DNA of 39,669 nt from an uncultured Methanosarcinales archaeon (GTDB taxonomy: Archaea; Nanobdellota; Nanobdellia; Woesearchaeales; SKGA01): assembly GCA_964498515.1 (NCBI GenBank), contig CAZCGV010000001.1, positions 1-39,669 on the forward strand, in the 5' to 3' direction. The position numbers were made by a program, and so were the translations under genes. The notes under the pieces were generated by a model. The model was given only the letters and a program-made list of their open reading frames with translations. It was not told the origin of the DNA and did no database searches. This document shows, in pieces, positions 13,761 to 13,994 of the stretch. How positions within the stretch are numbered: the stretch's first letter is position 1; every line of letters starts with the position of its first letter.

Positions 13761-13812
13761 TGTCCAGTGAGGCCAGTGCATCGAGAAGTCTCAGTACAGT
13801 CTCATACGAGAT
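13761..13812. repeat. repeat cluster 1: CCAGTG x2 (13764, 13773), then GTCTCA x2 (13788, 13799) and inverted GAGAT (13808)
   Basis: Read directly from the sequence. CCAGTG copies have a 9-bp period and GTCTCA copies an 11-bp period. Confidence 0.7.
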
Positions 13813-13861
13813 TAATGAATACACTAGTTTTAGCCTCCCTAAGTACATTTTAGGAAATTCC

Positions 13862-13907
13862 GTCTCATTTGTCTCAATCTCAATGAGATTTTTGAGATTT
13901 TTGAGAC
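13862..13907. repeat. iteron cluster 2: GTCTCA, GTCTCA, ATCTCA, then TGAGAT, TGAGAT, TGAGAC (3+3 inverted array)
   Basis: Left copies at 13862, 13871 and 13877. Right copies at 13884, 13893 and 13902, with a 9-bp period. The central ATCTCAaTGAGAT (13877-13889) is a perfect palindrome around one base. Confidence 0.8.
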
Positions 13908-13908
13908 A

Positions 13909-13930
13909 CCCCCTTATTTCCTATGGAAAC
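13909..13930 (-). promoter_or_regulatory. ORB-like element A (C-run + TTATTTCCTATGGAAAC; read on minus strand as dyad followed by a G-run)
   Basis: The minus strand reads GTTTCCATAGGAAATAAGGGGG. It has the TTCC-N3-GGAA dyad plus G-string layout of archaeal Orc1/Cdc6 origin recognition boxes. 21 of 24 positions are identical to element B at 39560-39581. Confidence 0.55.
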
Positions 13931-13960
13931 CCATTTTAAAGCCGCATCAATAAAAAATTA

Positions 13961-13994
13961 GTCTCAATCCAGTCTCACGTGAGATTTTTGAGAC
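13961..13994. repeat. iteron cluster 3: GTCTCA-N5-GTCTCA-CG-TGAGAT-N3-TGAGAC
   Basis: GTCTCA at 13961 and 13972 (11-bp period). TGAGAT at 13980 and TGAGAC at 13989. TCTCACGTGAGA (13973-13984) is a perfect 12-bp palindrome. Confidence 0.8.

Follow-up and report, generated by a model that had tools for sequence, protein, structure and literature searches.

What is a dense array of one short DNA word doing in a chromosomal spacer of an archaeon? The window considered here (39,669 nucleotides of contig CAZCGV010000001.1, assembly GCA_964498515.1) is GC-poor (30%) and comes from a DPANN archaeon of the Woesearchaeota/Nanobdellota type, the nearest public relatives of which are Woesearchaeota or Nanoarchaeia metagenome-assembled genomes. 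It encodes RadA, Pelota, a ribosomal-protein and SecY cluster, MCM, TBP, Hef, a fused PriS-PriL primase and GyrA. Copies of the hexamer GTCTCA and its complement TGAGAC crowd the spacer between the orf92-radA operon and a gene for a 205-residue winged-helix protein (ORF205). A first-pass annotation considered three readings: a replication origin, an array of operators or a recombination site prone to cruciforms. There is good support for reading the hexamers as the predicted binding sites of the protein encoded next to them, and for the presence of an origin recognition box (ORB) for Orc1 in the cassette that they form with the gene of that protein. The full explanation that we favour has, in our judgement, about an even chance of being correct: the hexamers would be the cis half of a self-contained two-part cassette with the adjacent gene as its trans half, widespread in Woesearchaeota-type (Nanobdellota) archaea, and the cassette would be a chromosomal protein-DNA site that engages Orc1.

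Hexamer arrays in the spacer

The elements discussed below are as follows.

13661–14042: divergent spacer, 382 bp and gene-free, between orf92-radA (minus strand) and the winged-helix gene (plus strand); contains all cis elements of the cassette
13761–13770: TGTCCAGTGA, a conserved, degenerate half site resembling a mini-ORB, 13 nt from a TATA-like TTTATATA (13740–13747)
13788–13812: left array, group 1; GTCTCA at 13788 and 13799, partial inverted GAGAT at 13808
13862–13907: left array, group 2; GTCTCA at 13862 and 13871, ATCTCA at 13877, TGAGAT at 13884 and 13893, TGAGAC at 13902
13907–13929, minus strand: ORB by pattern match, TTTCCATAGGAAATAAGGGGGTG; abuts the hexamer at 13902–13907 to give GGGGGTGTCTCA
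13961–13994: right array; GTCTCA at 13961 and 13972, TGAGAT at 13980, TGAGAC at 13989; stops 7 bp short of the TATA-like box of the winged-helix gene
14002–14015, plus strand: TATA-like box AAATTTATAAAAAA, presumed promoter of the winged-helix gene
14043–14660, plus strand: winged-helix gene (ORF205), 205 residues, TTG start; presumed hexamer-binding protein

As the first-pass annotation stated, the spacer is the longest in the window and is GC-richer than the others (34.8% versus 24.4% for all remaining spacers pooled). Its minus-strand side is occupied by orf92, radA and pelota, and its plus-strand side by the 205-residue reading frame, which is the sole plus-strand gene from 8375 to 39333. 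Orthologous spacers measure 350–400 bp and retain the order of elements. The spacer holds six of the nine GTCTCA and two of the three TGAGAC copies in the window, so that eight of the twelve exact copies fall inside 207 bp; the others lie at 14363 (within the winged-helix gene), 21422, 32174 and 39462. Thirteen hexamer positions had been listed earlier, and all are right except 13808, where the copy is merely a partial cGAGAT. The successive steps are 11, 9, 6, 9, 9, 11 and 9 bp, and the periods of 9 or 11 bp that had been claimed therefore hold for every step but the one of 6 bp. Both palindromes described as perfect are exact (ATCTCAaTGAGAT at 13877–13889 and TCTCACGTGAGA at 13973–13984). 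When the hexamer count was compared with a Markov background for the window, clustering proved to be far above chance: in 300 first-order simulations the densest 250 bp held 1–2 copies and never more than 4, compared with 8 observed. No second hexamer cluster occurs in the other 39.3 kb of the window.

Group 2 of the left array is almost invariant in close relatives, and loci L008–L010 and L089–L093 have a counterpart of it in a different arrangement. The right array of relatives ends in TGAGAC followed by a TATA-like box, as in TGAGACtggcgagtAAAATTTAAATA, and an A/T box occupies the equivalent place in orthologous spacers. Copies of TGAGAC that face GTCTCA stop 7–12 bp from this box in the window and in L009, L089, L090, L091 and L093, where the promoter is a predicted one. 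On the other side of the spacer, the TATA-like TTTATATA is the putative promoter of orf92-radA. The adjoining TGTCCAGTG is retained in radA-adjacent orthologous spacers, with a single variant, TGACCAGTG, in L093; locus L202 has an extra dyad resembling the TGTCCAGTGA site ahead of its left array.

The adjacent winged-helix protein

The neighbouring gene product had been described as similar to a winged helix-turn-helix protein, and an AlphaFold2 model based on a 34-sequence alignment bears this out: long N-terminal helices precede a disordered stretch (residues 85–128) and a winged helix (residues 132–196) that is predicted with high confidence (predicted local distance difference test score >90). 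The recognition helix reads CSRATLYRH. ORF205 thus combines a coiled coil at its N terminus with a winged helix at its C terminus, the two being joined by a linker that is acidic and disordered. ORF205 has no match in Pfam, NCBIfam, PHROGs or PDB sequences. Foldseek comparison with the PDB returned generic winged helices only (Fur, PadR, ScpB, TubR and RTP), every one with E >0.03; regulators of the Fur and PadR type are the closest, with TubR and ScpB among the weak matches. A tblastn search found nothing in a reference plasmid collection and a single weak, non-significant match (E = 0.3) in a phage collection. Assignment of ORF205 to a known Rep family was rejected on these sequence and Foldseek results.

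An exhaustive profile search expanded the ORF205 family to 634 cluster representatives, 386 of them with E ≤1e-10, and the family is unannotated. A recognition helix of the form C-[ST]-[KR]-x-[TS]-x-[YFW]-R, chiefly CSKATFYRY or CSKASFYRY, is present in 173 of 177 family representatives; such a near-invariant helix amid family identity of ~20–30% fits an invariant DNA word. A 2026 preprint reports that the uncharacterised winged-helix OG0000296 is a single-copy core gene of Nanobdellota (doi 10.64898/2026.05.13.725050), which may or may not be the ORF205 family. Additional GTCTCA copies occur within the winged-helix gene itself (L204 2817–2886, L206 2853–2931, L008 3115–3192, L010 3153–3164 and the window at 14363), chiefly in the stretch coding for the disordered linker.

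Conservation of the arrays

Orthologous spacers share ~85% nucleotide identity, and their overall conservation is no better than that of the flanking genes. The conservation that the first-pass annotation looked for among relatives emerged when these spacers were aligned: the array is conserved, and in close relatives the hexamers are kept and the bases between them vary. Eight more orthologues, with identities that go down to ~20–30% over the whole protein and ~30–40% over the winged helix, have the same synteny. Their hexamer is exact, although copy number (8–14), spacing and arrangement vary, and the order of elements is orf92 leader, TATA-like box, TGTCCAGTGA, left array, ORB, right array, TATA-like box and gene. 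A word that never changes while its number, order and orientation are free points to protein-binding sites and not to RNA or cruciform stems.

This evidence bears directly on the idea that the repeats are the stems of a structured non-coding RNA or of a cruciform recombination site, which we regard as almost certainly wrong. The spacer is GC-richer than others, and it folds better than shuffled sequences (z = -4.9 on the plus strand and -3.6 on the minus strand), but the predicted stems are hexamers pairing with each other. The arrays of some relatives consist almost entirely of direct repeats (for example, L211 and L212 have direct copies only, and L217 has 9 of 10) and thus cannot fold as hexamer stems. 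Relatives also vary in the number and order of copies while keeping the hexamer, with no compensatory pairs. Rfam gave no match at gathering thresholds over the whole window and nothing credible up to E = 10 over 13600–14100, ARAGORN found no tRNA, and two T5 runs in the left array (plus strand) would be expected to terminate archaeal transcription. A structured RNA was therefore rejected, its low z-scores being a trivial outcome of inverted hexamers and the structure not being conserved in relatives. The cruciform-prone recombination site suggested earlier does not fit a hexamer that stays constant while its number, order and orientation change among relatives.

Association with the gene and the Orc1 box

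An independent test scanned metagenome contigs with the peptide CS[KR]ATFYRY alone and yielded 63 loci, 40 of which are non-redundant and have ≥800 bp upstream. Hexamers were counted in the upstream kilobase, and an ORB was called where a dyad with ≤2 mismatches was joined by GGGG. At least four hexamers lie in the upstream kilobase of 31 of the 40 loci, and hexamer density is 6.1 per kb upstream of the gene compared with 0.39 per kb elsewhere. An ORB lies within or beside the array in 31 of the 40, and the GGGG(T)GTCTCA junction recurs in 22. The link between hexamers and the neighbouring winged-helix gene is therefore strong across many lineages. Across 50 arrays (391 sites), the commonest spacing of copies in the same orientation is 11 bp (56 cases), followed by 6 bp (36), 22 bp (14) and then 13 and 12 bp, with 11 cases at 32–33 bp; the base preceding the hexamer is preferentially A or T. 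Spacing by the helical turn, first noticed in the window, is thus a property of the whole family, though the window itself uses 9 and 11 bp.

The genes beside the metagenomic arrays are varied and include those for metallophosphoesterase, HIT, adenosine kinase, RNase J, RuBisCO, MiaB-like, NFACT and PolB proteins. In only 4 of the 63 loci does radA adjoin, so the array goes with the winged-helix gene and the ORB and not with radA. Approached from the other side, only 4 of 80 radA loci from GTDB genomes have the array, and these are the four closest (RadA 76–95% identical); the same four alone have an ORF205 homologue and an ORB-like box, and the other 76 lack all three. A radA-specific regulatory element was rejected because 76 Woesearchaeota radA loci lack array, ORB and ORF205 homologue and most cassettes lie away from radA. 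We do not take the cassette to be an operator for radA. The interpretation given in the first-pass annotation is strengthened by the gene link, the ~11-bp phasing and the genuine ORB within the array; what it overlooked is that the array is part of a widespread cassette that is independent of radA.

More generally, the arrays could be operators in a divergent promoter region, where a transcription factor activates or represses its own gene and orf92-radA and the ORB lets Orc1 tune the promoters. They do lie between two TATA-like boxes, with the right array 7 bp from the box of its own gene and the left array upstream of the orf92-radA box; the closest Foldseek matches are regulators of the Fur and PadR type, and winged-helix factors often autoregulate. 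Yet radA is adjacent in one clade only, and elsewhere the neighbours are unrelated housekeeping genes with no conserved target. Sites numbering 8–17 go well beyond what autoregulation needs, the array lies downstream of the gene or within coding sequence in several lineages, and no additional clusters occur in 39.3 kb of genome. A factor that targeted only its own promoter would also have no evident function. We therefore consider an operator array quite unlikely.

The Orc1 box and the question of an origin

The ORB at 13907–13929 is located between the left and right arrays. It closely resembles a second ORB in the window (39560–39579) and also resembles two inverted boxes that surround an AT-rich region beside orc1/cdc6 on contig L087. 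Its TTCC...GAA core agrees with the published ORB and mini-ORB (PMC1904270). In other lineages the box of the cassette comes still closer to the textbook ORB, as with TTTCCAGTGGAAATGAGGGGGTGTCTCA in L187.

Contig L087 encodes TBP and MCM proteins identical to those of the window and reaches past the right end of the window; it is from the same organism or a very close relative. It carries orc1/cdc6 and PolD DP1 and then a 667-bp spacer of 19% GC, in which two inverted ORBs enclose ~340 bp of extremely AT-rich DNA. This orc1/cdc6-DP1 arrangement has the layout of a classical archaeal origin and follows the gene order of Pyrococcus (PMC1904270, PMC4010727). The classical origin of the organism is accordingly predicted beside orc1/cdc6, ~27 kb from the cassette. 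It is situated just past the right end of the window (39334–39669, continued in L087 8114–10000): the AT-rich spacer is followed by TrmB-like and TraB-like genes, the solitary ORB at 39560–39579, and then TBP and MCM. A lone GTCTCA at 39462 lies ~100 bp from this ORB.

Could the cassette be an active chromosomal origin in its own right? It would then be a second replicator-initiator pair, captured from a plasmid-like element, in which the winged-helix (co-)initiator and ORB-bound Orc1 load MCM; we think this unlikely. The architecture does parallel that of iteron replicons: direct repeats recur every ~11 bp, inverted copies adjoin the promoter, a box for the host initiator is present and the next gene encodes a winged-helix protein. 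A family member accompanies iterons on the circular 3.5-kb element L154, which has no recognisable Rep, and a homologous winged helix terminates the phage primase-helicase of L153 right before a GTCTCA array. Beyond the left array, the window and L202 also have a second ORB-like dyad, and two Orc1 sites may thus bracket the iterons. There is precedent in Sulfolobus oriC3, which needs the winged-helix protein WhiP and is thought to be a captured extrachromosomal element (PMC4010727).

Other observations speak against an origin. A classical origin with two inverted ORBs, ~340 bp of AT-rich DNA and orc1/cdc6-DP1 lies ~27 kb away, and the cassette has no AT-rich unwinding element: the lowest GC content over 80 bp of its spacer is 26%, compared with 3.8% at the orc1-adjacent origin, and the spacer is GC-richer than its surroundings. 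The skew inflection sought at the array is absent here and in 14 other loci once the coding strand is allowed for. Gene orientation does not switch either. The 31 kb to the right, which include the ribosomal-protein and SecY genes, are transcribed in the direction of the spacer, and rightward forks from it would meet these genes head-on. Skew and orientation carry little weight as arguments, since in these genomes skew tracks the coding strand. Where two ORBs occur in relatives, they are mostly in direct rather than inverted orientation, and no orc1 gene lies within 3 kb of any of the 63 cassettes. A wider version of the same proposal would make the cassette a widespread plasmid-derived iteron replicator of Nanobdellota (DPANN), in which a GTCTCA-binding coiled-coil and winged-helix protein starts or licenses replication with the single, ORB-bound Orc1/Cdc6, as a second and hitherto unrecognised kind of origin-initiator pair alongside the orc1-adjacent origin. 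We consider this doubtful as well.

Copies on plasmid-like and phage-like contigs

A reverse test scanned viral contigs for the DNA array alone (pattern GTCTCAN{3,7}GTCTCAGTCTCA). It returned mostly (GTCTCA)n microsatellites and a handful of informative loci, including L154 and L153. L154 (1–3638) is a plasmid-like contig of ~3.5 kb and 32% GC that is taken to be circular because of its 127-bp terminal repeat. It encodes an ORF205-family protein, a 377-residue protein of unknown function and a NikA-like mobilisation protein; its GTCTCA iterons lie inside the linker-coding region and at the 3' end of the family gene, and it has no ORB and no recognisable Rep. Occurrence on an autonomous element rests on this one case. 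In L153 (3534–4780), a phage-type AAA_25 primase-helicase ends in a C-terminal winged helix that aligns to the ORF205 family (hhalign 89%), with a GTCTCA array directly after it. The pairing of helix and hexamer may extend beyond archaea.

Three phage-like contigs of 44–54% GC (L153, L129 and L125) have GTCTCA/TGAGAC arrays of mixed orientation adjoining helix-turn-helix segments that read SRATFFR, KPTFYRW or SRATYFR. The array-linked protein of L129 (2963–3657) is encoded directly upstream of the large terminase gene, and the array-linked small reading frame of L125 (4127–4459) lies 3' of the large terminase gene.

Plasmid partition systems offer a further comparison. In tubC-TubR and parC-ParR, a small DNA-binding protein coats short phased repeats found 5' of its own gene, which it also regulates. 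The cassette resembles these systems in its two repeat clusters upstream of a small DNA-binding protein gene, and differs from them in having a host-initiator box and no motor nucleoside triphosphatase (NTPase) gene. It might be a centromere-like or chromosome-organising site near the origin, at which a protein coat forms a complex for segregation or compaction, as in tubC-TubR, parC-ParR or origin-proximal parS-ParB. Plasmid centromeres are typified by short phased repeats beside such a gene, the weak structural matches include TubR and ScpB, L154 is a plasmid-borne copy, and in this genome the cassette lies ~27 kb from the origin. No NTPase of the ParA, ParM or TubZ type adjoins any cassette examined, however, the argument from origin distance depends on that single genome, and a centromere would leave the conserved ORB unexplained. 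We judge it improbable.

Proposed mode of action

Our best reading is an autoregulated protein-DNA locus that engages Orc1. Coiled-coil dimers or oligomers of the protein would place one winged helix on each W-GTCTCA site, and the long linker would accommodate variable site order and orientation. Direct copies would be presented chiefly on one face of the DNA, spaced 11, 22 or 33 bp apart or paired in 6-bp doublets. Occupancy of the 1–3 inverted, gene-proximal copies, 7–12 bp from the TATA-like box, could autoregulate the gene. The ORB G-string is fused to a hexamer (GGGGGTGTCTCA), which would set the winged-helix protein side by side with Orc1/Cdc6, the sole cellular initiator. The cassette might then control or titrate Orc1, or act as a secondary origin that is weak or conditional. 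Since the array has no conserved partners besides the gene and the ORB, an initiator-centred role is likelier than regulation of neighbouring genes. The analysis establishes the clustering of the motif, its joint inheritance with the gene family, an ORB within the array, the protein's fold and a copy on a plasmid; who binds what, as well as the autoregulation and any effect on replication, we infer.

Several points weigh against this explanation. The DNA target of ORF205 is deduced solely from co-occurrence and the protein matches no characterised family, while an Orc1-linked role draws its support only from the presence and conservation of the box. Fewer than four upstream hexamers occur in 9 of the 40 loci, the array lies just downstream of the gene in ~4 lineages, and some arrays, such as those of L189 and the plasmid-like L154, have no recognisable ORB. 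The search for further sites covered a few kilobases per cassette and the 39.7-kb window, and a wider regulon is possible.

Comparison with known systems

The iteron replicons of bacterial plasmids and of phage lambda, such as RepA/pPS10, pi/R6K, TrfA/RK2 and O/ori-lambda, have repeat units of 17–22 bp with a DnaA box alongside. The overall layout of the cassette matches theirs: iterons in tandem at about one helical turn, a host-initiator box (here an ORB), promoter-proximal inverted repeats and a winged-helix gene. As in ori-lambda, which lies in gene O, iterons are found inside the linker-coding part of the gene in L154, L204 and L206. Unlike iteron replicons, the cassette has a repeat unit of 6–7 bp and a small protein with one winged helix, a coiled coil and no detectable Rep homology; it lacks an AT-rich unwinding element, is a chromosomal feature found widely among related archaea, and is at most a putative replicator. 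The datA and DARS loci of E. coli are non-origin sites in which initiator boxes and accessory-protein sites control initiator activity. By analogy, the cassette would likewise join an initiator box with accessory-protein sites, although datA and DARS belong to the bacterial DnaA system and the genes of their accessory proteins are not adjacent.

Among archaeal systems, Sulfolobus oriC3 and WhiP share with the cassette a non-Orc winged-helix protein encoded beside its own cis site on the chromosome. WhiP is Cdt1-like, however, and oriC3 has neither ORB nor mini-ORB, whereas the cassette has a canonical ORB (PMC4010727, PMC3607249). No homology between ORF205 and WhiP was detected, and oriC3 is a proven origin whereas the cassette is only a putative one. 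The box itself is of the type found in canonical archaeal origins, a TTCC-N3-GGAA dyad followed by a G-string, and in Pyrococcus one full ORB is enough for good Cdc6 binding and clusters of ORBs away from the origin proper (inside dp1) can be occupied in vivo (PMC1904270). In contrast to canonical origins, the cassette has 1–2 ORBs that are mostly direct, do not flank AT-rich DNA, lie away from orc1/cdc6 and are embedded in arrays of a second motif. At Sulfolobus oriC2, overlapping mORB and C3 sites are bound jointly by Orc1-1 and Orc1-3 (PMC3089459). Two different DNA-binding proteins are similarly expected on abutting sites at the GGGGGTGTCTCA junction, but here the second protein is no Orc1 paralogue and co-binding is a prediction. 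Full-text literature searches on GTCTCA/TGAGAC with winged helix, or on archaeal iterons with ORB, found no description of the cassette.

Neighbouring features of the window

Other features of the window were recorded alongside the cassette. The 92-residue orf92 protein (13382–13660, minus strand) has no Pfam, PHROGs or PDB sequence match, and its gene lies immediately 5' of radA in 77 of 80 Woesearchaeota loci; its product would seem to be a conserved but uncharacterised RadA partner. The orf92-radA leader (13661–13735, minus strand; also in L008–L010, L089–L093 and L189) keeps a layout of CCCCCUC, hairpin, UGAAAUAAGAAGGGAAACCAAGGAGG and start codon, with compensatory changes in 6 of 8 hairpin pairs over 10 lineages, and may be a cis-regulatory RNA element of the radA operon. 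A short ATG-started frame at 13923 in the spacer was rejected as a gene, as it is not conserved in L009, L008 and L010 (read from sequence only). The window also has a complete gyrase subunit GyrA (4749–7250) in a DPANN archaeon, adjoining ScpB (3608–4501) and a RadB/KaiC-like ATPase (7677–8363). A single 671-residue reading frame (29866–31881, minus strand) comprises small and large primase subunit domains and a C-terminal NUDIX domain.

Biological meaning

DPANN archaea have small genomes and a single Orc1/Cdc6, and to our knowledge the control of their replication is unstudied. In the cassette, a conserved but unannotated winged-helix protein is combined with what appears to be its DNA target and with a canonical initiator box. 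It suggests that ORBs outside the origin can be conserved for reasons besides origin firing. Even if the cassette is merely autoregulatory, it would provide a function and a recognition sequence for a family of >600 clusters. If it modulates or replaces Orc1-dependent initiation, it would represent a new type of archaeal replicator, in which a plasmid-style iteron module has become fixed in chromosomes.

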